Origin: a virus
Lineage: Duplodnaviria > Caudoviricetes
Strand: one strand, 5' to 3'
DNA length: 64,000 bases
IMG/VR virus record: IMGVR_UViG_3300044655_000343
Coordinates: 870-64,869 of that record
The notes beneath the pieces are model-generated. The model worked only from the letters and a program-made list of their open reading frames with translations. It ran no database searches and was not told where the DNA came from. Shown piece by piece: positions 2,861-61,877 of this stretch (the first letter of the stretch is position 1; each line of letters begins with the position of its first letter). Made by a program: the position numbers and the translations under genes.

Positions 2861-4750
2861 TTATCCTGTTAAATCTATTATCTCACAAGCTCCTGCAGTA
2901 CAGGCTAAGGTGTGAGATGATGTTGTTGTGTCTGTCTTCTCATATAAAGAGAGATGATTAAAGTCTACATCTATAACAGGAAACGAATTATAAGTTTCTA
3001 GTGATATAGATTCAAAGGGAGCTTGTGCATAGATATGATCTGACTTGGGTAAGAAAGATATACCGGAGATCTTATCAAAGTTTTCCCATACCCATTGTCC
3101 AACAGGTAGGAATTCATTGTCAGCATAGTTAACAGTGATGCTTGGCTTGTGCTGACAGTAGTGCTCTTGATAAGTTAACCATAAGTTAAGATGATCAATA
3201 GCGGATAGTTCATTCTGAGTTAGTGATCCAGATGGAGCAGCTTGAACAAAGGTAAAGACTGCAGTTGAATCTGCATTCATTACACAATCTTCTACTGGTA
3301 CTTGGGCATCTCTCATCATGAAGTAGAGTGGATCCTTCTTGTCGATACGGACTCTTCTAAAGTAATGCTCCGCATACCGGGGATGTAATCCACTGGCTGA
3401 CGAAGCAAGACATGAAGTTGTGCCTTCTGGTTTAATACAAGTAATTGATTTACTTGGATTGATACCCAGCTTCTTAGACCAGTCAAGGTTAGTCTTGATG
3501 GCTGTCTCTCGTAGATCCTCAAGGACATACTTAAGTCTGCCATGTCCTAGTAGACCGGACATCAACTTGTTATCAAAGATACCTGTCATGGATACACCAA
3601 GCAGTCTCTCTTCTTCACAGTTATCCTGCCATGTCTTATCCTTGGCTAGGTAAGGGAAGTAAGTAAACATGCTTTGGATAGTACCAATGATGGTAGCCAT
3701 TTCAATTTTCTTTTCTAATGACTCTTGTGTATCAGTTGCATTGACAACAACAGTAGATAGATTACAGAATTGATTAGGGCGTAGGATGATCTCACTACAT
3801 GGATTCGTTCCATAGTAATGATCTTCACTACGGTCTGCCTTAACAGCAATGTTCTTCATGGCATCACGATTACAAAGACCACGCTCTCCACTGTGGGAGT
3901 TATATAAGTCTGTCCACTCTTCGAGGAACTGACCCATTGATGGTCTGCCATTGTAGATGGCTGAGTTGTTCGCTAAGGCACGATGACTTGAGGCTTGCCA
4001 CCACGCACCACTCTTGCAAGTAGCCATCTCACGGTCTGCTAGGTCGCTTAGAGAGATCATAGCGGAGCGGCGTACACCACCCACGATGACTGATTGAGCA
4101 ATCTTGCAGCAGATATCATGGCACTCAAGGGGCGTAAGTCTACGACCTTGGGCAGAATAGAATGTCTGTACTACAAATCTAAAGACTTCTTCTAGTGGGG
4201 CAGGACCACTTGCTCTACCACCAAAGGTCTTTAGTCTTTCACCTGACTTACGAATCTTACTTGTGTCCCACTTAATGTGGATACCCTTGTAAAGATTGTC
4301 AAGTAGATTGTTAAGTGCATCACACCAACCCTCGCGGCTATCCTCAACAAACATAACTGTATCAAACATCTTATGTATTGTTGGGATAGTCCCAAGTTTG
4401 TCGGTGCATCTACGCTCAACCGTATAGCCTACTCCAGTACCACACATAAGAATGTACATGAGGTTAGAGAAGGAAGTTGTTTTATTAATCTCAATGTATG
4501 AGCAATTGTATAGGGCAGTATGATCACGATCCAATGCTGGACCTGCGGTCATCAACCCACGCATACTTGGCAGTACTTCTAGATTAAGGATAGCATCTCT
4601 GATATCTGTCCGTGTCAGAAGAACAGGGGCTTTACCAGTAAAGTAATTCCACCATCTATCGACAGTCTCATCCCAAGTCTCTCTACGATTTTCTTTATCA
4701 AGCCAACGACTGTAGCGACTGATAGCAATAAACTTTTGAAATGTATCCAT
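2861..4750 (-). CDS. nrdJ: Class II (adenosylcobalamin-dependent) ribonucleotide reductase
   Basis: Motifs RRETWDETVDR, LPSMRGLMTAG, YNCSY, VGGVRRSAMISLSD, GTNPCSEI, IKPEGTTS, HKPSITV and C-terminal ACTAGACE. No NrdB partner gene. Confidence 0.95.
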   Translation of the reverse strand: MDTFQKFIAISRYSRWLDKENRRETWDETVDRWWNYFTGKAPVLLTRTDIRDAILNLEVLPSMRGLMTAGPALDRDHTALYNCSYIEINKTTSFSNLMYILMCGTGVGYTVERRCTDKLGTIPTIHKMFDTVMFVEDSREGWCDALNNLLDNLYKGIHIKWDTSKIRKSGERLKTFGGRASGPAPLEEVFRFVVQTFYSAQGRRLTPLECHDICCKIAQSVIVGGVRRSAMISLSDLADREMATCKSGAWWQASSHRALANNSAIYNGRPSMGQFLEEWTDLYNSHSGERGLCNRDAMKNIAVKADRSEDHYYGTNPCSEIILRPNQFCNLSTVVVNATDTQESLEKKIEMATIIGTIQSMFTYFPYLAKDKTWQDNCEEERLLGVSMTGIFDNKLMSGLLGHGRLKYVLEDLRETAIKTNLDWSKKLGINPSKSITCIKPEGTTSCLASSASGLHPRYAEHYFRRVRIDKKDPLYFMMRDAQVPVEDCVMNADSTAVFTFVQAAPSGSLTQNELSAIDHLNLWLTYQEHYCQHKPSITVNYADNEFLPVGQWVWENFDKISGISFLPKSDHIYAQAPFESISLETYNSFPVIDVDFNHLSLYEKTDTTTSSHTLACTAGACEIIDLTG

Positions 4751-5262
4751 TAGACTCCTGTACTCCCAAACTTACCTTCGCCTCGTACAGTATACGGAAG
4801 TTTATCTACAGAGACAAACGGGAACTGTGTGACGGGCATGAAGGCAATCTGTGCAACACGATCACCTCTTGTAAGAGTGTGTGTTATTGTTGAATTGTTA
4901 ATAAGTGGTAACCAAATCTCACCACGATAATCAGAATCAATGACACCAACAGAGTTGGCTAAGTTGATTCCCTTGTTAGAAAGACCTGATCTCATAAAGA
5001 GTAAACCTACATAGCCCTCAGGGATAGCTAAGCTAACCCCTGTGGGTACTCTAGTTACTACTCCGGGGAGTAGCGTAGTGTCCGTAGTGATCTTAAGATC
5101 AGCCCCGGCTGCACCCTTGGTATGGTAGGCTGGAGCACAGTCTCTATCATGGAGTACCATAGGGATCTTAGAATCGCTATGGATATAAGTAGAAGTATTG
5201 TAATTGTTTTGATTAGCAATAGTTAAAGACTCAGTGTTGTATTGGTTTACATCAGTGTTCAT
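4750..5262 (-). CDS. dut: Trimeric dUTPase
   Basis: Motifs AAGADL, RSGL, GVIDSDYRGEI, GDRVAQ and RGEGKFGSTG. Start placed at MNTDVN (5262), downstream of the ORF-track start. Confidence 0.95.
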   Translation of the reverse strand: MNTDVNQYNTESLTIANQNNYNTSTYIHSDSKIPMVLHDRDCAPAYHTKGAAGADLKITTDTTLLPGVVTRVPTGVSLAIPEGYVGLLFMRSGLSNKGINLANSVGVIDSDYRGEIWLPLINNSTITHTLTRGDRVAQIAFMPVTQFPFVSVDKLPYTVRGEGKFGSTGV

Positions 5263-6031
5263 TAGTGTTCCCTTGAGTATCACTCTTAGTAGCCCCAACT
5301 ATTGGGTCAAACAATAGTACGGACTTAGTTTTCTTGTTATATTCACCATGTCTAAGGATGCGTACACACCTAGCCATAGCGAGACAGTAATCATATCCAT
5401 ATCTATCCATTTCCTGAGGCTTAGCTTGGTCATAAGCTGCCAATACGGCGGCTGTCCAGTTACGGGGATGGACATACTTAAGCCATTTCTCTGCCTTAGC
5501 AGGTCCCCACTTCCAGATACCGGGGATATTATCGGTCGTATCACCCATGATCCATTGCTTGTGGAAGTTAAAGTCAGCAGTATAAGTATCAAGTTCTACT
5601 GGTTTAACTTCCTTGTCCGGGTTCCAATGCCACCCCGGTACAGACCGGAGATCCTTGTCAATGGTCACAGCAATAGCCTTGTTACCTGAAGCCATGAGTC
5701 CCATAATATCATCAGCCTCTAGGGTAGGAACAAAGAGTATATCATTCCGTTTAATTAAACTGACAGCTTCTGATAAAGTTTCTGGGGTTTGCTTCTTGAC
5801 ATCCCGATGGGCTTTATATGGTTCCCACACCTGTCTACGGAAGTTATCCTTACGATCACAGGAGATAGCCACATATACTTTCGTTACTCCTACTGGAGTC
5901 CATGCCTTGACATCATGTTCAATGCGCTCAGCAAGGTACTCAATGCCTTCTTGGTCTGCCCAAAAGGCAGCACGATAGGCAATGATGTCTCCGTCAAGCA
6001 CAGCAGTATCAGGTCTTGGTTGGCTTATCAT
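5252..6031 (-). CDS. 5'-3' exonuclease (T7 gp6-like)
   Basis: Motifs LDGDIIAY, NFRR..W.PYKAHR, EADDIMG, IDKDL and GDTTDNIPG. Confidence 0.93.
   Translation of the reverse strand: MISQPRPDTAVLDGDIIAYRAAFWADQEGIEYLAERIEHDVKAWTPVGVTKVYVAISCDRKDNFRRQVWEPYKAHRDVKKQTPETLSEAVSLIKRNDILFVPTLEADDIMGLMASGNKAIAVTIDKDLRSVPGWHWNPDKEVKPVELDTYTADFNFHKQWIMGDTTDNIPGIWKWGPAKAEKWLKYVHPRNWTAAVLAAYDQAKPQEMDRYGYDYCLAMARCVRILRHGEYNKKTKSVLLFDPIVGATKSDTQGNTNEH
5290..5302 (-). promoter_or_regulatory. Putative phage RNAP promoter motif ATAGTTGGGGCTA (copy 1)
   Basis: Exact 13-mer found 4 times in the same orientation; this copy is just upstream of dut/nrdJ and the structural genes. Confidence 0.6.
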
Positions 6032-12867: not shown

Positions 12868-13260
12868 TTATAGGTTGCTTACTGACAGAGTGAAGTAACC
12901 ATCTTCACCTGTAGCTGCCCATTGCTTAGTTACATGTAGGGAAATGATTTGAGAGTCATCTTCCCAAACCTTCTTGTTCATTGTATCAAGTATAGCTTTA
13001 GCAAAGTTATCAATATCAGGGCGAGGCGCGTCTAACTCAGTAGCCTTAGGCTTCTTAACATAGAGTTCAATGTCAACAACAAGAGGACCAGTCATGGGTT
13101 CTAAGTCTGTACCTAGAATATCCCATACTACCTCTGCTGCTTTTTCTCTGAACTCTTTATAAGTACCTGTGTAATACGCTCCCCATTTACCGACCCTAGG
13201 TCTTGATGCGGCAACTGGATTCAGATTAAATCTCCATTGATTAGAACGGGAGATCTTCAT
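12868..13260 (-). CDS. rusA: RusA-family Holliday junction resolvase
   Basis: Motifs PVAASRPRV, PDIDNFAKAILD and WEDDSQI. Start placed at MKISRS (13260), overlapping the end of ssb. Confidence 0.9.
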   Translation of the reverse strand: MKISRSNQWRFNLNPVAASRPRVGKWGAYYTGTYKEFREKAAEVVWDILGTDLEPMTGPLVVDIELYVKKPKATELDAPRPDIDNFAKAILDTMNKKVWEDDSQIISLHVTKQWAATGEDGYFTLSVSNL

Positions 13261-13783
13261 CCTCTGTTTCCTCAACATCAACAAGTGCTGGTGCAGACTT
13301 AGTTGGAGTAGCGGTTGACACGAAGCCACCATCTACTGCATCAAACCCTGTACCACCTGTGACATTGTTGGCATTCTTCTCAATGATTTGAATGCCATTT
13401 AAGTACACACTAAGACTATTGTCTCGTGTGATAACACATGGTGAAAGCTTAAGTCTTACCTTATCTCCACCAAACGGTACGGTATCAGTTGGGGTAGCCT
13501 GTGAATCAACACAAGGGAACTTACCTTCCTCAACATGTACGCGGCTCTTAGCCTTGAAGGTACGCAGTCCATCCTTCTCCATGATACCATTGATCTTAGT
13601 AGCACCTGACTTCTTAAGGATATCCTTGAGAACCTTATCAAGTGTCTTGTCTAAGACAACAGTAATGTTATGGTTGGCAGATGCCTCACCGAAAGCAATG
13701 TCTGGCTTAAGTAGATTGCTCCACTTAACTTCGACTACTTCAGTTACAAACTGCGGCATCTTCTTTAACTTACTCTTGTTCAT
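13241..13783 (-). CDS. ssb: Single-stranded DNA-binding protein (T7 gp2.5-like)
   Basis: W..L.KPD, FKAK, GGDKVRL, SVYLNGIQIIE, GFDAVDGGF and acidic C-terminal tail EETEDEDLPF. Confidence 0.9.
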   Translation of the reverse strand: MNKSKLKKMPQFVTEVVEVKWSNLLKPDIAFGEASANHNITVVLDKTLDKVLKDILKKSGATKINGIMEKDGLRTFKAKSRVHVEEGKFPCVDSQATPTDTVPFGGDKVRLKLSPCVITRDNSLSVYLNGIQIIEKNANNVTGGTGFDAVDGGFVSTATPTKSAPALVDVEETEDEDLPF

Positions 13784-13976
13784 TCGTAGTTTCCTTCTTT
13801 AATGATGCGTTGATATTGTCAACTTGCATATTCAAATCCATTACAATAGTATTCATGCCAGACGCTAGCTGACTTAAGCCAGCCGAAAGCTGACTAAGAT
13901 ACGCAACAACACTATCGGTACGGATAGCAGGAACTTGTTCCTTTGTTTCAGTCTCGGTATTAGTTTCAGTATTCAT
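13770..13976 (-). CDS. Hypothetical protein
   Basis: 68-aa ORF with a strong AGGAGG RBS, first gene after promoter copy 2. Confidence 0.7.
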   Translation of the reverse strand: MNTETNTETETKEQVPAIRTDSVVAYLSQLSAGLSQLASGMNTIVMDLNMQVDNINASLKKETTNEQE

Positions 13977-14008
13977 ATTTCCTCCTTTCTAAAAAATAAT
14001 ATCTTCTA

Positions 14009-14021
14009 TAGCCCCAACTAT
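14009..14021 (-). promoter_or_regulatory. Putative phage RNAP promoter motif ATAGTTGGGGCTA (copy 2)
   Basis: Intergenic, continues ...GGGGCTATAGAAG, upstream of the ssb block (like T7 phi2.5). Confidence 0.7.
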
Positions 14022-14031
14022 AGGGCTAATG

Positions 14032-14601
14032 TTAAGTGTTTTGATTTACCACCATGTCTGTCCATGTAGGGATACGGGCGAGGATGAACAGAGAAATCTC
14101 TGTGCCTTCCTTAAATCCGAGGATCTCACATAAGACCGCACTATACATAGCAGCATTGGGGTAAATGTTTTTCTGAGTTTGCTGACCAATAATACTCTTG
14201 ATCTCTTGTATTCTAAAGTGATACCACGGATGGTACGCTTCGATATAGTTTGCTACATCTTGCCAAGCCGGGTCAATGCCATCCTTATAGAATGAATTAC
14301 CAAAGCCAGCAATAGGAATCTTCCTATTAAGGAGGTCTACTATATCTCTAGTAGATGTGATCAACATCAGACGAGCCTCAGAGATGGGCGCATGATAGAC
14401 ACCAAGAGTTAGGATAGCCGAAGCTAATGCATTCTCTAAGCGTCCTGTTGTACCACTTGCATTAAGACATGCCATTGAACTAGCATTAGGATTATTCCTT
14501 GCTGAGTTAGCATGTGCTTCTATCACCATGTTTAATAAGACTTGGTGATTAATAGAACCATGCGGTTCAACTACATAGGGTAGATCAACTGTTATTTTCA
14601 T
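14032..14601 (-). CDS. Citrate synthase / citryl-CoA lyase-like protein (minimal, catalytic residues altered)
   Basis: Ordered motifs H..., NASS, ALASAILTLGVYHAP, IAGFGNSFYKDGIDP, IYPNAAMYSA..LG and LFILARIPTW parallel the citrate synthase core (NAST, GxxHG, GFGHxxYKxxDPR, PNVDFYS, FAxxRxxGW). Confidence 0.75.
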   Translation of the reverse strand: MKITVDLPYVVEPHGSINHQVLLNMVIEAHANSARNNPNASSMACLNASGTTGRLENALASAILTLGVYHAPISEARLMLITSTRDIVDLLNRKIPIAGFGNSFYKDGIDPAWQDVANYIEAYHPWYHFRIQEIKSIIGQQTQKNIYPNAAMYSAVLCEILGFKEGTEISLFILARIPTWTDMVVNQNT

Positions 14602-15254
14602 AGTGGCATTAGTTCTAGATAGGGTGCGCCATTAATGACAACACCACAACTAATCACAGGCTTCTTAATATTGTTCTCACCATACTTCATACCGATGTGC
14701 TTGCGGTCTACACCACAGCCTACATTCATACCGAAGATAGCATTGAGAGGGCTGACCTGCCAGTTGATACCTGCACATGAGTGATGATGCCCTGCTACAA
14801 CAGACATACCAAGTGCCTTGGCTGTGTTGAACGAGGGATACATACTAGAGCCACCAGTACCATGATGATAGAAGACCCTATCAACGGTATGGTTCTTTAC
14901 CCATGACCACTTGGTATTGTAGACTTCATTATAAGTCTTCAAGTAAAAGTCAGGGATACCTGCATCACCTGCAAGGCGAAGCACACGCTCATCATGGTTA
15001 CCAATGGTAACTACCATGTTCTTAAAGGTAGCCTTCCATTCCTTAATCTGTTCCATTGCATTACGATACTCACTCACCGCACCCGGATGATCCGGATGCT
15101 TAGCATGGAAGCTAATGCAATGATGGTCAACGATGTCACCGATATGTACAATAGTGTCACACTTATACTCTGCCTTGATATCCTTCACGAACTGAAGGTA
15201 ACCATCAAGCACAGCAGGGAAGTGAGTGTCTCCAATTACTAGTACTCTACTCAC
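14598..15254 (-). CDS. Calcineurin-like metallophosphoesterase
   Basis: IGDTH, HIGDIVD, GNHD, HHG and GHHH metal-binding motifs. Confidence 0.9.
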   Translation of the reverse strand: MSRVLVIGDTHFPAVLDGYLQFVKDIKAEYKCDTIVHIGDIVDHHCISFHAKHPDHPGAVSEYRNAMEQIKEWKATFKNMVVTIGNHDERVLRLAGDAGIPDFYLKTYNEVYNTKWSWVKNHTVDRVFYHHGTGGSSMYPSFNTAKALGMSVVAGHHHSCAGINWQVSPLNAIFGMNVGCGVDRKHIGMKYGENNIKKPVISCGVVINGAPYLELMPL

Positions 15255-15493: not shown

Positions 15494-15704
15494 TAAAAAT
15501 TTCTACATTCATGTTTGGTTGCGGCTCTATGTTTCGCATAGAGAAGTCTAGGTACGCAGCTTGTAAGAAGATATCACTAAGGGCTTCCGTTGGAAACCAA
15601 AAGGATATTCTCTTTTTCTTTTTAACAGATGCAGCTAAGGCAGTAAACAATCTTACTGCTTCTTCTAGATCACCCTCACTAGTAACTTTAAATACCTTAG
15701 TCAT
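15465..15704 (-). CDS. Hypothetical protein
   Basis: 79-aa ORF, ATGA-coupled to the RNAP stop codon. Confidence 0.65.
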   Translation of the reverse strand: MTKVFKVTSEGDLEEAVRLFTALAASVKKKKRISFWFPTEALSDIFLQAAYLDFSMRNIEPQPNMNVEIFIEGEPDDSD

Positions 15705-18172
15705 TGGAAGAAATACTCCGCATCTAAAACATCCTTAATGTTTAATGAACCAGTAGGTGGTGCATCAGGTACTGTAATCTTCAATGCTTTTGATACTTCG
15801 ATCCGCATGTCATCTAATAAATTGGTCGTATGCATAGCACAGAACTCTTCATTAGTAAACATACGCATTAGATTAACATCAGGTGCAGGACAACCATATG
15901 AATCATGGATCATACTGAACTGTTCAATACCAGCACCAACCATTCTATACACAGTACACCACATATGACTTGCATCAAGTGAGTGAATATAGTTAGGGGA
16001 GATGGCTAGATTAACTGAGCCACCATCAATTGTTTCCTTATCGGGTGAGCCAAAGTGTAACTCTTTCATATCGAATAGCTTAGCGACTGATCGCCTAGTT
16101 AGTATCTCATAGTATTGATGTACTACTTTAAACCCACACGGGGTAGTCCACTCAACATTCTTACCTAACTCACTAGCCATATCAGCCACCACCTTGAGCC
16201 ATGCCTTGCCCTTGTTAGCCTCGACCAATGTACCCTTGAGGGCAGCATCAATGAAGGTAGCTAACTCGACAACAGCACCAGCAATCTCATCCTTACCAAC
16301 CCAATCAAGGTGACCCTCAGTCTTACAGTACCTGCGAATACCATAGAAGGTAACACCATAGGGATCAGTCATTACTGCTCTCTTACAAACAGAGCGGTCA
16401 ATGTCACCCTCCCAATACTCTATAAATTTTTTCGCCCATTTTCCATTGTTAGTATCTGCATCCTGTACTGACACCATGTTAGATGTCATCACATCCGCAA
16501 CATATTGATACAGGTCTTCGGGCTTGTTAGTGTGTATGAGGTTAACCTTCTTGGCAAGATAAGGGTCACGCATAAGTGCAGCCCAATGCTGAACACCATT
16601 ACATGAACCATCCATTTGCACAGGTACTTGAGTTAACCCATCAGTACGACACAGATCAAAGATAGCAGCGATACGCTGGAAGCTTGGATTCTTTTTCTTC
16701 TTATGTGATACCCACTCAGAGCGGGTAGCATAGGGATCAGTATTGATTCTCTTAAGCATGTCCATGTTATCATCGACCCACTTAACTCGTTGGTCAAAGG
16801 TTATCTTATCCTGATCGAATAGATTAGCGACATGAACCTTGAGCCAATACAAACCAATAGATGTTTGTTTCCTTGGCTGAGCAAACTGAATAAGACCACG
16901 ATCAAAGTCACTTGACTGTGGACTAAGTAGATCACATGCTGCATTAGCACGACCACGGAAGTCACATGTATAGATATGATAGAAGAACTTCAGAGGGATT
17001 AATGATTGTGCCAGTTTAATTCGGACAAGCATACGACCTCGTGATCGTTCTTCCTTATACCAATTGCTATATGTTTCTTCCTTGAGCTGACACCACTTAG
17101 CCTTCTCTTCCTTAGTCCCATCCTTAGGATAGGGATCAGCAAAGTCAAAGGCTGAGAAGTCATACACGGGAAGGTTAGCATCTCGTGTGTTGTTCTTAAA
17201 GAGTGCAGTCATTATCTCTAGCACTCGCTCATTGATTGACCACTCGGTATGCATCATAGCATTAAGACCAGTGACTACTATCTCTGATGGAAGGCTACCA
17301 TTCTGGTGTACCTTCTCATCCCACATCACATCCTTAAACTTCTGTACTACAGGCTTACGGATATGCGGTAGTAGATTCCCACCACTACTACTTAGAGTAT
17401 GTTTAATTGGTGGGATAATCATTGGTCGATATAGCAGGGCAGCGGTAGCAATCACATCTTGATGACGCTTATTAAGTTCACTCAATATGTCATCAGTAAA
17501 GGTAACTACTACCCGCTCACTCCATCGCTTGCCTGTATGCTTACGAATGTTCTTTAAGTTAATGACCTCAGACATTTCTGCTATGCGTAGCATGTGATGA
17601 CCAAAGTCTTCTCGTTGTTTCCTTGAGAAGGTTTTCTTATTAAGAGTACCCATCTTATAGGCAAACGCCTTGCATCGCTTAGTAGTCCACTTCTTCTGGT
17701 AGTGGGATTGTTTGAGCCAATCCTCACGGAATTGTTTCTTAGCCTGTTGATAGGCTACAATCTCCACTACCATCTCAGATATAACATGTGCTATGTGTTG
17801 AGCAGTAGGCAATGGGAACAGATCGTTCTCATACTTACGCTCCCAGAAAGCAGAGTTAAACCATTCGAGAATCAGTGATCTAATAGTAATGTCTGCCATC
17901 TTAGCAGCACCAACAGCAAACAAAGGGAATGCCCAATCAGGTGTCTTCCTATTCTCTGATACCGTATCTATCCATTGCTGGTAGAAGGGTGTAAGATGGA
18001 TGACACATGCGTCAATCAATGTTTGCTCAGGGATACCCTCATCAGGGTTAGCATTGTATGCATCCCAGTATTTATGTTCCGATAGGCAAAGCATATCTTC
18101 CTCAGAGATAACTTGTAGTGCAGTTCTTTTATCTTGTTCTTCTTTAGATAATGAATCCCAAAGTTTAGACAT
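15701..18172 (-). CDS. Single-subunit DNA-directed RNA polymerase (T7 gp1-like)
   Basis: PMIIPP, DFRGR, motif A DGSCNGVQH, motif B RSVCKRAVMT.PYG, PNYIHSLDASH, motif C IHDSYG, C-terminal YFF. Confidence 0.98.
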   Translation of the reverse strand: MSKLWDSLSKEEQDKRTALQVISEEDMLCLSEHKYWDAYNANPDEGIPEQTLIDACVIHLTPFYQQWIDTVSENRKTPDWAFPLFAVGAAKMADITIRSLILEWFNSAFWERKYENDLFPLPTAQHIAHVISEMVVEIVAYQQAKKQFREDWLKQSHYQKKWTTKRCKAFAYKMGTLNKKTFSRKQREDFGHHMLRIAEMSEVINLKNIRKHTGKRWSERVVVTFTDDILSELNKRHQDVIATAALLYRPMIIPPIKHTLSSSGGNLLPHIRKPVVQKFKDVMWDEKVHQNGSLPSEIVVTGLNAMMHTEWSINERVLEIMTALFKNNTRDANLPVYDFSAFDFADPYPKDGTKEEKAKWCQLKEETYSNWYKEERSRGRMLVRIKLAQSLIPLKFFYHIYTCDFRGRANAACDLLSPQSSDFDRGLIQFAQPRKQTSIGLYWLKVHVANLFDQDKITFDQRVKWVDDNMDMLKRINTDPYATRSEWVSHKKKKNPSFQRIAAIFDLCRTDGLTQVPVQMDGSCNGVQHWAALMRDPYLAKKVNLIHTNKPEDLYQYVADVMTSNMVSVQDADTNNGKWAKKFIEYWEGDIDRSVCKRAVMTDPYGVTFYGIRRYCKTEGHLDWVGKDEIAGAVVELATFIDAALKGTLVEANKGKAWLKVVADMASELGKNVEWTTPCGFKVVHQYYEILTRRSVAKLFDMKELHFGSPDKETIDGGSVNLAISPNYIHSLDASHMWCTVYRMVGAGIEQFSMIHDSYGCPAPDVNLMRMFTNEEFCAMHTTNLLDDMRIEVSKALKITVPDAPPTGSLNIKDVLDAEYFFQ

Positions 18173-18457: not shown

Positions 18458-19438
18458 TTATACGAGGGTGAGTGCAAACTTCATAACATCCAGAGTAGTC
18501 TCTTGATTCTTACCAAGGAGATTACTAAAGGCTGATGATTCAAACGATGGCTTACGACCACGAGCAGGGATACGATGCTGCAGTTCCTTGGTTACTGCAT
18601 TAGCAGCAAGCCAAAGGTTAGCACTACATCCATTTAACTCAGCCCGTTCAGCATCAAAGGTATCAGCCCACTTGCGGATAGTTACAGTAGCGCGGAGATA
18701 GTTCTCATAGTCATCGGGTAGTGTTGGATTAGCCACAACTGGCTCTTCAACCATACCCCATACATCCAACCAGAACTTCTGGATCTCTGACTTAGTAAGT
18801 TCCTTACGAACAAGAGTTTGTACCTTATCTTCAAAGAGTTTACCGGACATAGCGTAGAACTTAAGAGCTGATGCCATAGCCTCACGCTTCTTCTTCATGT
18901 CACCTGAGTGTACAATACGGAAGGACTTCTTACCACCTGCCATAGCCATGCTCAGTGTATTCTGACACACGATACGAACAGTAGTAGGTAGTGCTTGCTC
19001 AGCAAGAGTACCATCATGACTGTTGATGAGTGCCATATACTGTGCGATAGGATCATGTCCATTGACACCATCCATTTCACCTGTCTTACACAAGACAACC
19101 AAACGCTTGCCACCATTCATGCTTAGAGCAGACTCAATCTTAATGTCAGCACCAAGATTATACGCCATCTCAAAGACTTCACTATTCTGTACGATCTGAT
19201 AGTCAGGGGATTGAATAGACAAGATAGCATTGTTATCACTACGAACAATAGCATTGTAGTCATCAGACGTAGCATCACCTGCGGTTACTGGACCGACCTT
19301 ACTAACAGTCCAATCAAGACCAGCAATCTTCATTGCCTCAGTAGGTGACATATCTTCCTGAATAACCAAGCCAAGTCCATGCCATGCGGCAGTCTTACTA
19401 TAGACTGCACCATCAGTATCTGTAATGTTATGTGCCAT
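18458..19438 (-). CDS. DUF932 domain (phage/plasmid-like) protein
   Basis: Motifs MAHNI, AWHGLG, AGLDWTV, YQIVQN, NSHDGT, VRIVCQNTL. Confidence 0.9.
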   Translation of the reverse strand: MAHNITDTDGAVYSKTAAWHGLGLVIQEDMSPTEAMKIAGLDWTVSKVGPVTAGDATSDDYNAIVRSDNNAILSIQSPDYQIVQNSEVFEMAYNLGADIKIESALSMNGGKRLVVLCKTGEMDGVNGHDPIAQYMALINSHDGTLAEQALPTTVRIVCQNTLSMAMAGGKKSFRIVHSGDMKKKREAMASALKFYAMSGKLFEDKVQTLVRKELTKSEIQKFWLDVWGMVEEPVVANPTLPDDYENYLRATVTIRKWADTFDAERAELNGCSANLWLAANAVTKELQHRIPARGRKPSFESSAFSNLLGKNQETTLDVMKFALTLV

Positions 19439-22498: not shown

Positions 22499-22721
22499 CC
22501 AAGGTTCCTTTCTTCGTACTTATAGTAGCCCCAACTATTCGGCAGGTTGCCGATAGTGCAAGGCTTTGTGTTTCCCCGGCGCACACCGGATACCATCTAG
22601 GATTGTTGTAGGTTAGTACGAATCCCACCCATATGATCTCGTTTCCCATCGGCAATCTCTTTACCATAATTTGTATACCACCATCCGTATGATAGGGCAT
22701 CTGTCTTGTCTCTGAATCCAT
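22488..22721 (-). CDS. Hypothetical early protein (start uncertain)
   Basis: ORF-track call; overlaps 22597-22797, so the true start is probably downstream. Confidence 0.45.
   Translation of the reverse strand: MDSETRQMPYHTDGGIQIMVKRLPMGNEIIWVGFVLTYNNPRWYPVCAGETQSLALSATCRIVGATISTKKGTLDEN
22526..22538 (-). promoter_or_regulatory. Putative phage RNAP promoter motif ATAGTTGGGGCTA (copy 3)
   Basis: Exact copy of the 13-mer, continuing CTATAAG; lies upstream of the tRNA region. Confidence 0.6.
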
Positions 22722-25931: not shown

Positions 25932-26354
25932 ACGCTTGGCGGGATGACGGGGGGTTGCGCGGGGGGGTTTGGGGGGGATACCCCTTCGCTAATTTTTGAC
26001 CCCTCTAGTCGATTCCCAGATTGAGTAGGGATCCCCCTAGCTTGCCCTGTGTGGGGTTGTTTGTGTTGATGTCCTCCGGTAGCCCCAGAGGGATCCGGGA
26101 ACCCCATAGGAAATCGACAAGGGATTAACCGGGGGGTAAACCCCGGAGTGCTCTATTCTCTGAATAATCCTAGATCCCCTTTCGGGGACCTAGGATCTGT
26201 ATGTTTATATAATATTATAATTAACACTTAGGTTAACTAGGGTTACCCTTAGGTTACCTAAGGGACTATGTATTACTATATAATATAATAACATAATTTT
26301 AAAAACTTAAAGACAGTCTAGGTTACTCAAGGTATCCCTTAAGTATCTATCTAG

Positions 26355-26367
26355 TAGCCCCAACTAT
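26355..26367 (-). promoter_or_regulatory. Putative phage RNAP promoter motif ATAGTTGGGGCTA (copy 4, phiOR-like position)
   Basis: Overlaps the stop codon of the giant gene and points into the AT-rich end region. Confidence 0.65.
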
Positions 26368-29300
26368 TGGGCATTATCTAAGAGATCCCCTAGGGGACCT
26401 GATACACCCTTTGACATGTCTTCATACCGGACTCCGGCTTTGGCTTCCCTTGCCTTCTTAAGGGCTTGGGCTTCCAGCTCAAAGTTGCGAGGGGCAACCT
26501 TAGGTATCGGTGGTAACGACTGAGAAGAACTTTGTTTTCTTCCTTGGCTCTTTGCATAAGGATGTGGGTTTCTGTGAATCATATTCATGTAGGTTTGCAA
26601 TGTTCCCTTTTCTTCCAAAGCTCCTGAGACTTCTAGGGATCTAGCAGCCACAGCAATTGGACTTCGGTTTAACAAAGAGTTAACTGATGTGATATCACCA
26701 ACTCCCTTAGCAACCTTCATGTAATCAACTTCTTCATTACCTGTGATTCCTTCTACAACCTCACCAACGCCTCTACCAATACTTTCTGCAGCCCCGGTAG
26801 CAGCTCCCATACCGATGGACTGCATTGGACTACCATAGTACTTCCAAGTTCCACCAGACATGTAGCTCAGACCGCTTAAGCCAGACTCTAGAGCACCACT
26901 CCACATTCCCATGATAGGGGCAGACTTAGCTACACGAACAGCAAAGGCATGTGGGTTATCTGAGAACTCTTCAAGGATATCCTCGCCATCTCTTCCGGCT
27001 ATCCACTCACGGAGCAGACCGATAGTAGCATCCAGTGTTCCATAAAGAACTATGTTAGCAGCTAAGTACCGAAGTGTATCGCGGCTACCATAATCCAGTA
27101 TAACATTATCTTGGAACCCACGGATGTAGGAGCTAAGAGCATACCAGAGTTTACCAAGTGGTGTCTTGGAATCAATCGTAGTAACTCGACCTAAACCAAT
27201 AGGTTCAGGTGATGAGGTCTTAACCACCAGATCTTCTAGGGCAAGTCCATAAGAACTAATAGCTTGCTCTAATACTTCTGGTTTAATCCCAGCAACAGGA
27301 TGAGTCGTAGCATGCCAATATACATCAACCATGTTGTGTAGATTAACCCGACCTTCACCCTTCTTGTCAACCTTCTTAATTAAATATTCAAGATGTTTAA
27401 TCTTCTCGACAGAGTTTAAACCATACTTCATAAAGACTAGAGCTTCCTTTGGGTTGAACCCGAAGCCAGTCTTTCTAGCCAATGTGTAGAATTGTTTACG
27501 GAGCTGATTCTCTGCTCCTGCGCTTGTCTCTGCAGCTGCCATATAGTCCTGCATGAGTTTCATCATGGCAGGATCTTCTAGGGCGGTGAGTAGCTTTTGA
27601 ATTCTACCCTTCTTAATATGACCATAGATCATACGCTGTAGTCGGACCTTAGCCATTGATCTGGTAATATTGGTGATCGCTTGTAGCGAACCAATAGTCT
27701 CAGCAACTCTAGCTCCAGACTCTAGAACACGAACGCCTCTATCTATCAGACCCGTTGCAGGGCGAGGATTAATAAACTTACTCTTGATCTTAGATCCAAT
27801 TGTAGAATCTAATTCAAACGCTCCTTGATTTGCCTCACCCAAGAATCGGGAACTAAACTCATACTTAATATTCTCCAGACCGAAGATCATGTCTCCAAGC
27901 TCAGAGTTATTCATAAGAGAGTTCTTTGAGACTCGGAAGTCTCCGACCACAAACCTTAAAGCACTAATGAGATTACCCGGAAGATGTAAAGGATTTGACT
28001 TTAGCGTTTCCATCATAAGCTCAGGCAATGCTCCAAGGAAGTAACCAGTAGCAACCTTAACTTTCATCAATGCCAATAGGCTTCTTGCAGCCGCTTGATC
28101 CTGATAAGGCAGTATAGGAAGAGTATCTGCATTAGATGCATATTCATCCTTGAGTCTTTGAATACCTTCTGTAACATCTTGAAGTCTTGCAGCCAACTGT
28201 CCGGGTGTCCAGTTTTCAGCTTTAGCTATAGCCTCTATATCTCTTCTGGCTTCACTAGCTACATGAGGAAACACATCAGTGATTCTTACATTGCGAGAAC
28301 CCATGAGTCTATCAAGTTCTCTCTGGAAGATAAGTTCAAATACTCTACCATTCATAAAGTAATTATAAGACTCAGCTAGATTGGTTCTAATGTGTTTTAG
28401 AATAACAGGATCGGATAGTACTTCTTCAGGAATCAAACCGGGAACAGACAAAGCTGTCTCAGCTGAAGCATCAACAACCATTAGAGGTCTATCAATGTTA
28501 GTACCGGTGTTTCTCTGATACTCACTGTATGCACCCTTCTTTGTCTTGAAGTCTAACATCTCATTCATCTCAACTTCAATAAGCTCTCTACCTTTTAGGT
28601 AGTCTTGCCACCGTTGGGTATACAAAGACTTATTGCCGTTGACTGCTTCAATGTAACGAACTCTATCGGCATCAGCTAGTTCACTAATAACCGTAGGCAT
28701 TCGATATAATCTGATAATACCACTCTTAGGATCTGTAAGAACAAAGTGCTTTTGTGACTCAGCACCATTAGCTAGCTTAGCTAGAACACCCTTTTCACCA
28801 ACAGTAATTGGGTGCTCAGATACAAACAGACCCTTTAAAGTTTCAGGGCTAAAGCTCTGAGTTGACTCACCGGGTCTAAAGTCTCGCTTGCCAGCAAACA
28901 AGTCAGTACCTCTCGCCTCTTTTGATGGAGCAACATCTAGCCAACCAAGGACAATAATTGTATTGATATCTAAGATTGGTGACTTTAACTTACGAGTTCT
29001 ACGAGCCTTTACAAGACCCGCTACAAAGAGAGCACGATCAGTTGGACTCATAGCTGAGAAGCTTTCATGGTTCAACTGAACTGGCGCATACTTCATAGGA
29101 TCCAATGGCGTACCATCAGCAGCATTGCTATTAAACAAACCTGTCTCATTCTGTAAACCTAATATAGTTTGATTGGTCTGTCTTGTAATTTGTAACAACG
29201 AATTAGCTTCAACAGCAATGGACTTAGCTAGGTCTGGGGATAGACCAAGAGCAACAAGATCAGCAGGGGCAATAATAGTACCCTCTGAAAGCTTTGTATA

Positions 29301-32300
29301 ACTTAGTACACCAACAGCTCTAACTTTATCTAAAGCTAGTCCACTATCCTTTAACTTCTTATTAAGTAATAGTTGTTGTCTAGCAATACGAGTAATCATT
29401 CTGGCTTCATCAGACTTACATTGTCTTGCAGTTCGGAAAGCTTCCTTACCTGCTCCAACTAAATGTCCTGACTGTGCTCGGTTGTCTTCAAACAAACGAG
29501 ATAAGAATCGAATATTCTTCTGTAGATTTCTAATGGTCTTACCAGTCTGACTAGCAGCCTGTGTTGCATTAGCCATCCAACTATTCATTGCTCTCCACCA
29601 GTTTCTAGATGCTCGTTCACTACCACCAAAGATTGCTCCAATAAGACTTCCTTGACGCAAGAGCACTGATGCACTTTGTTCGGAGTCCTTTGTAGCAGTA
29701 TTAATGATTCTACCCATATCACCTCTAGGTGTTTCTTTTATAGGTTCTAATGGAATAGTTTCTGGCTTAACCGGAACTTCCTCACCAGCCTTAGGAGCTG
29801 GAGCTGGAGTTGGTTCAGGCGGTGTAGGCACAGGAGACTCTGCCTTAGTAGCATCACTTACTTTCTTTCGAGGAGTCTTAGACTCCTTGGCAACTAAAGT
29901 AAATGCAGTAGCATCCTCAGATGATTTAACAATATTTAATTCATCCAAAAGAATAGGAGGCATGTAAGCATCTCCAACTTCCTTAGCAGCAAGCACCATA
30001 AGCTGACGCTCTGATAGAGACTTGAAACCGGGAACAGTAGCAAGCTTCTGAACATTCTCAGCCCGTAGCTTATCTACCGAAATCCAGAACTTGGATATAC
30101 CCTCATCACCAAAGACAGCTCTGTTAGCTTCAACAATTGCTTTGTTGATAGTAACAAACTTTGTCCACAGCGACAACAGCGTAGGAGAATAAGTATCAAC
30201 TGCCTTATCTATATTCTTCATGCGTGTCCAGTAGTTCTTTAAGAATAACTTTAAGAACCCTTGGTCCATTCCATTGTCACGGAGTAGATCCTTATCATCA
30301 TTAACAACCCGCTCTATTCTTTCTGTCTCAGTAGTCTTAACAACTTCGGATACAGTCTTTCGTGGAGCAGGGGGAGCAATGCCACCTGTCTTAGTAACTC
30401 TAACTGGTGCGCCATCATTAGCTGCTGGTGGAACTGGGGTTGAGGGTAGGTCTTCCACAGGTGCTACAGCCGGAGCTGGAGTTGTGGTTGGTTCTACTAC
30501 CTCAACCTTAGGAGGTTCAACAACAGCTGTTACAGTCTGTACTGGCACACCTTTCTTAACCTTAATCTTGGTTACAGAAGGAACACCCGCCTTAACTTTA
30601 GTTTCAGTAACACCCTTAACAACTACAGGTGCATCAGCTTGAATTGGCATTACTACACCGTCTGAGAAGACGAGAGCATCAACGCCCATTCTATCTGCAA
30701 CCTTCATAGTGGATGCCATTTTAACTTCGTTAGCCATGAACTCAGCTGCGGTCATGGTCATTGGTAGTGGCTTCTTAGGAACAAACGACACAGCTTCTTT
30801 GGTTGACACATCACTGTTTTCAATGATGGCATCAACTTGCTTCTCTGGTCGTAGTACAGCTTCTGGAACATTACCAGTAACTTCCGAAGTAGCTCTAAAC
30901 AATGTACCCTCTTCCACCTTTGTAACAGGTGTCATAACTGGAGGTGCATCGGTCTTTTTACTTCTAGCAGCCAAGGCTTGCTTTTCTAGCAAGCGACTAC
31001 CAGCATCAACAGGAGTAGATACTGGCTTTGGAGTTGGCGCAGCTTCAGCTTGCTTAACAATCGCCTTAACTGACTCTGGCTTTTCTACTGCCTTAGTAAC
31101 AACCTGATCCATTTGCTTAACATGCGCTAGAAGAGAGTCTTGAGTTTCTACTAGCTTAGCCTTTGGATCATATTCAATAGCCTTACCAATAGCAACCATC
31201 TTATCAAATAATGCATTTCTGCGCGTGCCAATAGTTCTCTCACCAGTTTTCTTACCAAGAAGATCAACTGATTTAGAAGCTAATTCTTTATCGGACTCAA
31301 CAGTTAATAGGGCTTTAGCTAGTTGAACTTCTTCTGGAGTTAACAAAGTATTGTTTGTTAAATTATTCCATGTTAAAGCTGTATCAAACATAATAGCACT
31401 AAACTCTTTTTCAGTGGTAGGTTTAAATACCCCAGCATTAACTTTAGCTGCTGTTCCTTCTTGTGTAGCTCCTTCTTTAGTTTCTAAAGATTGAGCATTC
31501 TTATCTTTTCTAATCTCATCTAACTGTTCTCTTTTACGGATTGTTGAAGCAAGTCTAAGAAGTTGATTCTCAGTTTGTAATGTACCTTCTTTAATTTTTT
31601 CAATAAGATACTCTCTCTTATTATATAAAGCACTGATTTGAACTCTTGTGAGTTTCTTTTGTTCTAATGCTTTAATAATAACATCATCTAGATTATCTGC
31701 AGTAAGTTCTAGACTACCATCGGAAACTGCAGCAAGCGTTGCCTCTGCCTTTACCTTGGTTTCTTTTACTTTAGCTGCAGTTGCTTCTGCTGGAGTTTTA
31801 GGAGTAGTTACTCTTTTCTTCTTAGGTTTAGCACTTGGAAGTTCCCACTTACCAGAAGTTTCATTCAAGACAATAGCTCCAGTCTCAATCATCTTATGAA
31901 TACCAGCTAATGCTTTTTCAGGAGTCATGTCTGGAGTATCACTCATCTTTTGAATTAATGCTGCATCAATGTTCTTAAGCAAAGTAGGAATACTCAGATG
32001 AGTAATATCCTTGTTACTTAGGAATGCAGCAATCGAATCAATAGCAATGTCCTTGGAAGACCAAATAGGAAGATCCATATCCTTACGAATATCAGGAGTG
32101 AGTTTACTAAAGGTTCCTTCGTTGTAGATAGATTTAACTTGCTCTGGATTTAATGAAATCCAATAAGAAGTAGTAGGATCCATTTTAACTTCAATACCAT
32201 CATAACCTAATGTTTGTAGTGCTTTCTTTGTACCAGCATCTCTTCTTTTTTGTGCGCTATCAACAGACTCTCCAAAAATCTCTGAATGTGCGGTAACAAA

Positions 32301-61200: not shown

Positions 61201-61877
61201 TGAATACTGTTGCCAACAACGCCAAGAAATGACCATGACCCGTAACTAGTATTTTCAGCAGTTCCTAGTTGGATGTTTGCATCAGCACCAGTAGCACAAG
61301 TAATTGAAAATATGCATCGATACCAATCGGTAGTTCCAACACGTTCGATGCTTCCGGTAATCCCATACCCTGCATTAGCAATCGAATAGGAACCACTCCC
61401 GGTTAAGGTGTAAAATATAAGTGCATCACTGCTTACGTTATTGTCTCGTATCCATCCAACGGTTCGATTAACACCTTTTTTCATGTACACACTAGCGGTA
61501 TATCTCATACCACGAATGCTTCCAACCGCTTGAATTAATGCATGAACATTGTTAACAGCAGTTTCACTTATCTCAGTTGCTGTATTGCCATCATTCGGAT
61601 CTGTCGAACTAACGCGAGTTACGTTAAGAGCAGTCCAAGATGCATTGGCTAACTCATTACTTCTTAGCCATAAGTTTGATTTTGTCCATTCAACGTAACC
61701 GCTTGAGTTTATAAACGTGGCATTGGAAGCGCGGGTAAATGTCAATCGTGGATCAAGAACACCCTTAGTAAAATCTAAGTTCAATGTAGAACCATCTCCT
61801 CCCTCTATAGGAAGCAAACGATTCCGTTGTGTCCTCCATGCAGGAGGATCTAAAGTCCATGTTCGATTACGATGCAT
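58218..61877 (-). CDS. Fibre/spike-like protein with tandemly duplicated beta-sandwich (lectin-like) modules, 1219 aa
   Basis: Two copies of TLNLDF..LTF.R.S.ATF.NSSGYVE...PRFDYSPTNIG.P.GLLIEGQT.N...WGAQLE...ASSYIPTG...RL.N.QLQ..T. Confidence 0.75.
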   Translation of the reverse strand: MHRNRTWTLDPPAWRTQRNRLLPIEGGDGSTLNLDFTKGVLDPRLTFTRASNATFINSSGYVEWTKSNLWLRSNELANASWTALNVTRVSSTDPNDGNTATEISETAVNNVHALIQAVGSIRGMRYTASVYMKKGVNRTVGWIRDNNVSSDALIFYTLTGSGSYSIANAGYGITGSIERVGTTDWYRCIFSITCATGADANIQLGTAENTSYGSWSFLGVVGNSIHVWGAQAEMGFVARPLIVTTSTAKYDDPRFDYSPTNIGEPKGLLIEGQTQNALYYSQDVTQATRWTIQGGIPSSYTSISATGGTAPDNTNTANLCTESTANNSRSLYQGLTAAAGTYTASVWVKAGTGSTRYIRLVLPSAAGNFVYVTVNTATGVITQAAAVGTATAASATVTPYPNSWYRIQLTGTLAAAVSFVFIVPLDSATSSVNTSDYGREAYIGNGSSFYVWGAQLEANFGASSYIPTGASTVQRNGDDCKITGTNFSSWFNNTEGTCLFVGDNLFVPAPSNFANSWGLISAANSLRISNYTRHTDGRLGASARYLSNPANALTFDSPSGSPTNITTTAVYKTAFALKTNDFAYSANGNTVGLGEAAGTFEAVTSLEFARDGIRNGHIKQFKFFPTRLSNSQLQQLTSPDYVAPTLNLDFLSMSSHTDLINSGLTFSRPSTATFVNSSGYVEYAGANTAPFSELLTTGSNYNDNAILSRSTTTSPTGNTAVVFYPTLVSDYHRLQFGAPIAMVGATTISVYVKQIGSDYRVGINANGYVAASAIFSLIDAGSVVGAVGGTAPNRAATITKVTDDGWYRITLTGTYTSLSSVYVFMASSTSTDPTGLNFTGVAAQGVAIWGLQINPGSTAQTYYPTTTAAYHAPRFDYSPTNIGQPRGLLIEGQTANLIKGSQTIAGTEWSSSSPAFTVEFNSTDLVAPDNTNTTTKLVYTTGYARAVQTNITVLASTTYTFSYWIKSTGICNWKIYNASAGTFIVENIPIPASANFQRVTRTFTTPVGCTSIWAYVADDAAAGTYYVWGAQLEAGSGASSYIPTGSGTVTRTPDLLAVTNTATMKLNTNEGTFFVETELPRGGTTSPSQFGTPYANGSWFGHFYGGADALTLTANWWGGSVGSLARGGNTKSLTALSYGAYTGLALSFSSSLNGALSTGTMTSSGGNNAPNPATWSYITLGCNATSLAATSRDNLYACIKSFKYYPVRLTNAQLQSITA

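Follow-up and report, generated by a model that had tools for sequence, protein, structure and literature searches.

A phage-restricted family of minimal citryl-CoA-lyase-fold proteins with replaced catalytic residues and a recurrent, putatively sulfotransferase-like partner

The window analysed here, 64,000 of the 64,869 bases of the IMG/VR record IMGVR_UViG_3300044655_000343 (a lake-water virus of the Caudoviricetes; completeness 96% by CheckV), carries on its minus strand a gene for a 189-residue protein of the citryl-CoA-lyase (CCL) and citrate synthase fold, which we call the mini-CS protein. Its start codon overlaps the stop codon of a preceding metallophosphoesterase gene (ATGA); beyond that gene, on the same strand, are two small open reading frames (ORFs) and then a gene for an 823-residue single-subunit RNA polymerase (RNAP), and downstream lie a 68-residue ORF, a Gp2.5-like single-stranded-DNA-binding protein (phrog_112), RusA, ThyX and a 116-residue ORF without a Pfam match (Table 1). 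Our analysis shows that mini-CS belongs to the CCL and citrate synthase superfamily by fold and by homology and lacks the defining catalytic features of both enzymes; that its family is large and restricted to phages, and the gene itself under purifying selection; and that many of its relatives adjoin or are fused to a second protein, the partner, of which the window phage has no copy.

Table 1. Window positions of the mini-CS gene, its motifs, the neighbouring genes discussed and the intergenic element.
Feature	Positions	Strand	Remarks
Mini-CS gene (citryl-CoA-lyase/citrate-synthase fold)	14032..14601	-	ATG start; 189 residues
H30, nearly invariant family-specific His	14512-14514	-	without counterpart in the aligned part of citrate synthase
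G67-V-Y-H70, GxxH His kept (His274-type)	14392-14403	-	aligns to the 'GPLHGG' His of solved enzymes
G99-F-G-N102, GFGH His replaced by Asn, at the end of the loop K/R-I/V-P-G-F/W-G	14296-14307	-	alignments to solved enzymes
D110-P-A112, DPR Arg replaced by Ala	14266-14274	-	alignments to solved enzymes
N149-A-A151, catalytic Asp of NVD replaced by Ala	14149-14157	-	alignments to solved enzymes
A175-R176-I-P-T-W180, oxaloacetate/citrate-binding Arg kept (Arg401-type)	14062-14079	-	alignments to solved enzymes
Metallophosphoesterase, calcineurin-type, directly upstream of the mini-CS gene	14598..15254	-	PF00149, E 6.1e-12; phrog_221, E 2.4e-48
Single-subunit T7-type RNAP, three genes upstream of mini-CS	15701..18172	-	tblastn matches 2729 phage records annotated RNA polymerase
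Element CCnATAGTTGGGGCTAyTA, right after the mini-CS stop	14001-14025	-	one of four window copies

The likeness of mini-CS to citrate synthase is far beyond chance. The protein matches the Pfam model Citrate_synt (PF00285; E 5.9e-12, 45.7 bits against a cut-off of 27), its residues 38-186 falling on profile positions 182-346 of 357; phmmer against the PDB returns Thermotoga citrate synthase (E 1.3e-9) and Hydrogenobacter CCL (E 2.7e-6); and a profile of 114 family members finds 3tqg as its best PDB match (E 2.4e-16), with 2p2w also among the best, all 45 PDB sequences at E<=0.001 being citrate synthases, methylcitrate synthases or CCLs. An AlphaFold2 model built with the 114 sequences is all-helical, with nine helices, and confident (pLDDT 96.9, pTM 0.92; pLDDT 83 with 8 sequences only). 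VIA-align places 6hxo_B and 6hxp at the top (Z 18.1, rmsd 2.6-2.9 Å, 183-186 of 189 residues aligned), followed by the CCL module of human ATP-citrate lyase (ACLY; Z 17.3-17.6) and the Thermotoga citrate synthase 2p2w (Z 17.3), with the other listed citrate and methylcitrate synthases at Z 13.3-15.5. The best Foldseek match is 6hxp as well (E 5.7e-7), and the viral structures of BFVD hold no match at E<=0.001. The citrate synthase fold similarity suspected in the preliminary description of the locus, which had been made from the sequence alone, is thus confirmed by Pfam, the PDB profile, Foldseek and VIA-align; the protein belongs to the citrate synthase superfamily, and its closest structural relative by VIA-align is CCL and not GltA.

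Mini-CS is too short for the two-domain chain of citrate synthase (~360-430 residues), and the stop codon of the upstream gene overlaps its start. It is homologous to the C-terminal half of GltA and PrpC (PF00285), that is to the small acetyl-CoA domain with flanking helices as described for the Metallosphaera enzyme (PMC6386500); it has no N-terminal half and keeps one of three catalytic residues. However, because 183-186 of its 189 residues align to a stand-alone CCL core, it is not half an enzyme: judged by the model, mini-CS is essentially a whole minimal CCL core and not an arbitrary fragment of citrate synthase. Hydrogenobacter thermophilus CCL (6hxp) and the ACLY CCL cores (6hxo, 6hxl) have the same minimal all-helical core (Z 17.5-18.1), and CCL and mini-CS have in common the motif order, the GxxH His, the G-F/Y-G loop, D-P, P-N and the late Arg. 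They differ in that CCL has GYGH, DPR and NVD where mini-CS has GFGN, DPA and NAA; in that mini-CS is ~70 residues shorter (189 vs 256-268); and in their sources, as CCL, a free enzyme in Hydrogenobacter, comes from autotrophs with a reductive tricarboxylic acid (TCA) cycle, whereas mini-CS is encoded by phages.

In alignments to solved citrate synthases and CCL, H70 takes the column of the GxxH His, N102 that of the GFGH His, A112 that of the DPR Arg, A151 that of the NVD Asp and R176 that of the Arg in AR..GW. Of the catalytic triad only the GxxH His (H70) is kept, the GFGH His and the NVD Asp being replaced; of the oxaloacetate/citrate arginines R176 is kept and the DPR Arg is Ala. By motif spacing, the five positions correspond to His214, His253, Arg262, Asp307 and Arg332 of Metallosphaera citrate synthase, for which His214, His253 and Asp307 are named as catalytic and Arg262 and Arg332 as substrate arginines (PMC6386500); by our mapping, the C-terminal segment with the trans-acting Arg351 of that enzyme lies beyond the end of mini-CS. 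The citrate synthase core motif order, with GVYH and ARIPTW kept and GFGN, DPA and NAA in place of the usual motifs, had been read from the translation before and holds both there and in the alignments.

These replacements are family-wide. In a MAFFT alignment of 158 mini-CS family members, Asn occupies position 102 in 139, with Ser there in 11, His in 5, Cys in 2 and Gly in 1. Position 112 holds Ala in 91, Ser in 27, Leu in 11 and Ile in 9; some members have Lys there and none has Arg. Asp is absent from position 151, where Ala (134), Ser (14) and Gly (10) account for all members. The same members are nearly invariant at N149 (158), G99 and G101 (157 each), H70 and R176 (155 each) and S41 (154), and they also keep W180 and D110 (152 each), F104 (150), H30 (146) and P111 (144); Lys or Arg stands at position 106 in 144 members and at position 144 in 119. 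In front of GFGN, the loop follows the citrate synthase pattern K/R-I/V-P-G-F/W-G, and H30 sits in the helix that precedes the region covered by the Pfam and PDB alignments. The window protein carries all the family motifs: A-H...N-x-S...G-x-x-H-[AG]-P...G-[FW]-G-[NS]-S-F-x-K...D-P...P-N-[AP]-[ASG]...R-x-x-x-W. The homologues are homogeneous and conserve the substitutions, an outcome in favour of the preliminary description.

The pattern of loss bears on whether mini-CS could be an ordinary auxiliary metabolic gene product, with citrate synthase or CCL activity carried by substitute residues. A Pfam match above cut-off, the retained His70 and Arg176 and the name 'citrate synthase' that JGI gives to two relatives would all sit well with such an enzyme, which we nevertheless regard as highly improbable: two of three catalytic residues and one substrate Arg are lost throughout the family, and all 11 NCBIfam citrate synthase and CCL models score below their curated cut-offs, and far below them (the best, TIGR01800, at 38.7 bits vs 421.3; the CCL model NF004869 at 27.8 vs 212). 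Mutation of the corresponding Asp or His nearly abolishes citrate synthase activity. A study of ACLY reports no acetyl-CoA formation by ACLY-D1026A (PMC10115795).

The family itself is large. An exhaustive HMMER search of 1.84 billion representatives of 50% identity clusters found 425 clusters at E<=1e-3, of which 257 also pass E<=1e-10, and mini-CS scores 217.7 bits against the family hidden Markov model (HMM), which includes mini-CS itself. Almost all members have 160-215 residues. IMG/VR holds 159, 76 and 49 confirmed stretches for three overlapping sub-profiles of the family; clusters near mini-CS in the Atlas are 96-100% viral; and prokaryotes, represented by one genome for each of 185,579 species, yielded only 4 loci, all on contigs of metagenome-assembled genomes. 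The deposited phage genomes of INPHARED contain no mini-CS homologue (tblastn, E<=1e-3), PHROGs has no family for it (best E 0.11), and PADLOC has none at E<=0.01 for mini-CS, for two partner proteins or for the two fusions described below. One member, P0004 (208 residues, on a 1,037-bp contig), has 79 C-terminal residues that are 92% identical to the C-terminus of mini-CS behind ~130 unrelated, low-complexity residues, and its sequence suggests that it is probably an assembly chimera or a recombinant.

Comparison with close relatives on other viral contigs (97-99% protein identity) gave pN/pS values of 0.044-0.108 in 11 of 11 cases; synonymous exceeded non-synonymous differences in every comparison, and all 11 copies are intact. 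The proposal that the gene encodes a pseudo-enzyme or a repurposed enzyme, and is not a pseudogene, stands on the membership in the superfamily, on the family-wide substitutions and on this purifying selection (pN/pS 0.04-0.11). A decaying, functionless remnant of a captured host citrate synthase gene might be short, as mini-CS is beside citrate synthase, and devoid of catalytic residues, but it would hardly be found intact in close copies and in 425 clusters of the same length with the same substitutions, nor give so confident a model; we consider this reading effectively refuted. The only possible pseudogene among 54 dereplicated gene groups is a split family member in locus L114 (~4667-5104), where ORFs of 64 and 110 residues stand beside an intact partner gene; the split may reflect a frameshift or an error in sequencing, or mark a rare pseudogene.

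The best 150 hits of the family all have 119-233 residues but two, and these two are fusions, one in each order: in P0048 (366 residues) the citrate-synthase-like part comes first, and in P0125 (364 residues) it comes last. The other half of both carries a G-L-P-R-S-G/R-T-A-F/W loop; P0125 matches PF17784 (24.7 bits vs a cut-off of 22.8), PF13469 stays below its cut-off in both, and the C-terminal half of P0048 is 39% identical (E 1e-46) to a gene of ~181 residues that lies directly downstream in 58 of the first 80 viral loci. As a query by itself P0048 matched no viral locus, and a word-index search with the family profile, which is weak evidence, found no longer (fused) relative at E<=1e-5. 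To tally the linkage, 188 loci were searched with the family HMM and an iterated partner HMM, and the family members were dereplicated at 90% identity and freed of pieces below 150 residues, which left 50. The partner lies directly downstream in 14 of these and directly upstream in 13, is fused in 1 and is missing in 21, the last member sitting at a contig edge; it thus adjoins or is fused in 28 of 50 members and is not universal.

Several lines of comparison point to a sulfotransferase-like partner, an assignment that we make with moderate confidence from the sequences. Among 22 diverse partner proteins there are 11 with a match to Sulfotransfer_3 (PF13469, best E 2.2e-8), 3 with one to Sulfotransfer_4 and 1 with one to Sulfotransfer_1; the partner profile finds 41 PDB sequences at E<=10, 34 of them named sulfotransferases; the motifs PRSGT and R-x-P-x5-S, which bind 3'-phosphoadenosine 5'-phosphosulfate (PAPS), both align to PDB sulfotransferases; and the Atlas neighbours of the partner are viral clusters with PF13469 in 47-61% of members. 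The partner shares with small bacterial and viral sulfotransferases (Sulfotransfer_3, Sulfotransfer_4) the PRSGT-type 5'-phosphosulfate loop and the R-x-P-x5-S 3'-phosphate motif, and at ~180 residues it is shorter than the 250-320 of solved sulfotransferases. For the partner gene of locus L030 (10497-11042) and its relatives (P0174-P0228), most database calls start 18 codons late (163 vs 181 residues) and so cut off the G-L-P-R-x-G-S/T loop, which the fusions show to belong to the domain.

A complex prediction for one unfused pair, that of L030, scored 0.48 (runs 0.49, 0.39 and 0.48) with the best control at 0.00, which counts as weak support: of 80 solved complexes 58 attain the mark, as do 2 of 110 mismatched pairs, and those that attain it with a score of <=0.60 are only 7 of the 80 solved complexes and both passing mismatches. 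At least 68% of contacts recur between runs, and the partner has a pLDDT of at least 84. Because fusions exist in both orders, the prior for binding between mini-CS and the partner was already high.

Residues H30, N39, S41, H70, K106, D110, N149, R176 and W180 are equally conserved in the 28 linked and the 21 unlinked members; H30, for instance, is His in all 28 linked members and in 20 of the 21 without a partner. Given this equal conservation, the core probably has one function, whether or not the partner accompanies it.

Where phages carry the partner, the pair is embedded among large genes that match neither Pfam nor PHROG families, with a large terminase and a tail-fibre-like gene upstream, and this block looks like a late or structural module. 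Loci L022-L081 (e.g. L030, 5094-15960) share a block of about nine genes (~409, 616, 267, 323, 188, 181, 270, 457 and 811-1260 residues) in which only the mini-CS homologue and a weak tail-fibre-like gene have matches, and a divergent large terminase lies upstream on the opposite strand; this is probably the structural module of an undescribed phage group.

The window copy stands alone. A search of the whole 64.9-kb record with the fusion-containing profile, with PF13469, with PF17784 and with the iterated HMM over six frames found no sulfotransferase-like gene (best E 0.28); a hidden partner gene was accordingly rejected after these four negative searches. A maximum-likelihood tree of the 50 dereplicated proteins, midpoint-rooted for drawing only and not read for the direction of events, places the window protein in a clade of 5 rows, 4 of them from loci that also hold a T7-type RNAP. 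This clade is nested within one whose other members have the partner downstream (supports 96/89, 99/94), and a second partner-less clade of 15 rows, mostly from RNAP phages, is sister to the remaining partner-bearing members. The place of the gene varies within the early and DNA-metabolism region of the RNAP phages: it follows a metallophosphoesterase, RusA or a DUF932-like gene. The metallophosphoesterase was considered as an obligate partner and dropped, the adjacency being absent in other RNAP-phage lineages. Just upstream of the window RNAP lies a DUF932 protein of 326 residues (18458-19438, minus strand; E 2.7e-39), and a gene of ~330 residues directly precedes the mini-CS homologue in other RNAP-phage lineages (L104, L172, L180, L185); by its size and position it may be of the same DUF932 family.

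The window phage carries a T7-type polymerase and is otherwise distant from all deposited phages: no deposited genome in INPHARED matches 6 kb of the window by megablast, and the best identity of its RNAP to that of any deposited phage is 27.9% (tblastn). The label 'T7-like' used earlier is apt for the polymerase type and fits poorly with a 64.9-kb record and an RNAP so far from those deposited. The minus strand also holds a 3465-residue ORF (26364-36761), whose sole PHROG match is phrog_21376, of unknown function (residues 1344-1563), followed by ORFs of 1439, 1677, 1101 and 1219 residues, of which the last two match tail-protein PHROGs and the first two match nothing; such a set of giant genes is unusually large for a 65-kb phage. 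The 1219-residue tail protein (58218-61877, minus strand) contains two pairs of direct repeats of 79-84 nucleotides at 58724-61139 (identity 80-82%, spacing 1728-1860 nucleotides) and is matched by phrog_5939 in five stretches, a sequence pattern that indicates an internal duplication of a ~600-residue domain.

Right after the mini-CS stop lies one of four copies of a conserved element (5282-5306, 14001-14025, 22518-22542 and 26347-26371), all in gene orientation. Three copies fall within 3 mismatches vs 0.01 expected by chance, and the element holds a 5-bp inverted repeat with a 3-base loop. The copy at 14001 lies in a 55-base gap between the mini-CS stop and a strong AGGAGG ribosome site and is found at the same place in 11 close relatives (L002-L012); related strains have 10-base insertions at 14020-14022. 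Four studies, with one lake-water RNA library each, yielded contigs over the mini-CS region at 90-99% identity, with DNA carry-over possible and with neither strand nor level revealed. In two of the studies the contigs stop at the element, at 14027 and 14015, without a loose end there, and their depth is 39.5 and 19.7 vs 4.8 and ~2 over the mini-CS gene; a contig of the third study ends at 14118, and one of the fourth bridges 13178 to 15121. The element is a candidate phage promoter or processing site, and there is a weak hint that it starts a unit headed by the single-stranded-DNA-binding protein, mini-CS closing the preceding unit that holds the RNAP. The earlier statement that mini-CS follows the RNAP, two small ORFs and the metallophosphoesterase is correct, and these contigs, as a weak hint of expression, cover the gene. 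The copy at 26347 lies just after the stop codon of the 3465-residue ORF. That ORF was considered as an N4-type virion RNA polymerase with hairpin promoters because the element holds the inverted repeat CCCAA-TAG-TTGGG, and the idea was dropped, PHROGs having given only a family of unknown function.

Our results suggest, as a proposition that could fall either way, that mini-CS is a ligand-binding or otherwise repurposed CCL-fold module that is unable to make or split citrate by the known mechanism. The core has lost the residues required for citrate and citryl-CoA chemistry. Of the putative pocket it retains the Arg401-type Arg and the GxxH His, together with the NAS motif, the K/R-I/V-P-G-F/W-G loop, K106 and K144, and His30 is a new addition. 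The G-F/Y-G loop, as found in mini-CS, we take to read the CoA adenine in citrate synthase, where basic residues that contact the CoA phosphates presumably sit at the places of K106 and K144. Sulfotransferases use PAPS, and CoA and PAPS share the 3'-phosphoadenosine 5'-phosphate (PAP) moiety. Since the partner is probably of a type that uses PAPS, since CoA and PAPS have this moiety in common and since the retained part of the fold holds the nucleotide end of CoA, the sequences make it probable that mini-CS still binds a 3'-phosphoadenosine nucleotide (CoA, acyl-CoA or PAP(S)). In the Metallosphaera enzyme it is the small domain that forms the acetyl-CoA pocket (PMC6386500).

On the mechanism we propose, the pocket would hold a 3'-phosphoadenosine nucleotide with an anionic group, either CoA or acyl-CoA or else PAP or PAPS. 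Where the sulfotransferase-like partner is present, in more than half of the lineages, mini-CS would probably serve as its substrate-presenting or nucleotide-binding subunit; in the window lineage, alone in the transcription unit of the RNAP, it may sequester or sense a metabolite, or present it to a host protein. Both the ligand class and the mode of action are what we infer from residues and neighbours. The pairing with a sulfotransferase-like protein points away from manipulation of the TCA cycle and towards 3'-phosphoadenosine nucleotides (CoA, PAPS), and the suggestion in the preliminary description that mini-CS redirects carbon finds no support here.

The residues that would shape a binding pocket could also shape an active site. 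The main alternative, possible though we would bet against it, is that mini-CS is a repurposed enzyme that performs another reaction on acyl-CoA or a related thioester through His70, His30, Asn102 and Arg176, for example a hydrolysis, a transfer, or the preparation or acceptance of a sulfated beta-hydroxyacyl-CoA, with the partner, where present, carrying out the next or the previous step. H30 and H70 are invariant or nearly so, together with R176, N149 and D110; the A, S or G that replaces the Asp and the Arg would enlarge the pocket; the protein pairs with another enzyme-like protein; and the partner profile weakly matches the sulfotransferase of CurM (E 0.012), which reportedly sulfates a beta-hydroxyacyl thioester. 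An enzyme of this kind, however, would want a general base, and at the aligned positions nothing of the kind stands in for the missing Asp; position 102, where N, S, H, C and G all occur, is loose for a catalytic residue; and 21 of 50 lineages lack the partner enzyme.

Several points tell against the ligand-binding reading. That H30, K106 and K144 line one pocket is our surmise from alignment and from the contacts in citrate synthase, and two invariant His, an Arg and an Asn would fit a new catalytic site equally well. The two arginines that contact the CoA phosphates in citrate synthase lie, we presume, in the N-terminal half that mini-CS lacks. As to the partner, 11 of the 22 proteins, among them the protein modelled in the complex, have no Pfam sulfotransferase match when taken alone, the best PDB match of the partner profile, a tyrosylprotein sulfotransferase, reaches only E 0.0015, and a complex verdict of weak support errs in the majority of cases in which the pairing was not likely beforehand. 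Finally, as the window phage has no partner, the clue that the partner provides bears on the window copy by homology only.

An effect on host enzymes, as put forward in the preliminary description, was also considered, and nothing in the analysis points to it. CCL modules are oligomerisation cores, and mini-CS could act as a dominant-negative binder that co-assembles with host GltA, PrpC or CCL through its conserved helices and poisons a shared active site; the gene lies in the unit of the RNAP, the usual place of host-takeover genes. The citrate synthase active site does take an Arg from the other subunit (PMC6386500). We consider this improbable, for what is conserved is the pocket and not any identified surface, the family occurs in very different phages, and pairing or fusion with a sulfotransferase-like enzyme beside large, probably virion genes is hard to reconcile with it.

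A non-catalytic role for a CCL-fold module that binds a nucleotide, as we favour for mini-CS, has a precedent in human ACLY. Its citrate-synthase-homology (CSH) module has been argued by one group to be non-catalytic, CoA-binding and allosteric; in their D1026A variant, they report, a hole is created in which the thiol end of CoA is accommodated (PMC10115795). Like mini-CS in its pairs, the CSH module joins a CCL fold to a second, catalytic unit; its contacts with CoA run via His900 and Arg1065 (PMC10115795), whose equivalents in mini-CS by our mapping would be H70 and R176. It differs in keeping the Asp and in being fused to an acyl-CoA-synthetase-type domain, whereas the partner of mini-CS, if present, is sulfotransferase-like. 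The likeness would be one of function, with no sign of close kinship, and we regard it as a precedent and not as evidence for mini-CS.

A fuller picture can be drawn, one that we offer as conjecture and think unlikely to be right in every part: a two-part phage sulfation module in which the disarmed CCL fold would hold a CoA-type or hydroxy-acid ligand, or PAP(S), for a mini sulfotransferase and, alone as in the window, would act early in infection as a sink or sensor of a 3'-phosphoadenosine metabolite (CoA, acyl-CoA, pAp). If this were true, host metabolism would be altered, or a host defence that depends on such a metabolite blunted, and mini-CS would found a new class of phage proteins that bind metabolites and be the first case of a virus employing the citrate synthase fold without catalysis.

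We found neither the mini-CS family nor its pairing in print among the papers listed by searches of the open full-text literature on phage-encoded or auxiliary citrate synthase, on citrate synthase-like bacteriophage proteins and on phage or viral sulfotransferases, subscription journals and supplements being outside the scope of that search. The few members named in databases (JGI, Atlas) are called 'citrate synthase' or 'hypothetical protein'. The fold and the superfamily are known; what is new here is the changed active site, the partner and the viral setting. As pipelines label the family 'citrate synthase', surveys of viral auxiliary metabolic genes could count it as TCA-cycle capacity, and such counts would be wrong because the family cannot do that chemistry by the known mechanism. 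Mini-CS would add a viral case to the few known non-catalytic uses of the citrate synthase fold; its family, large, strongly conserved and restricted to phages, with a confident model, a clear putative pocket and an enzyme partner that recurs, might reveal an undescribed phage activity on CoA- or PAPS-type nucleotides.

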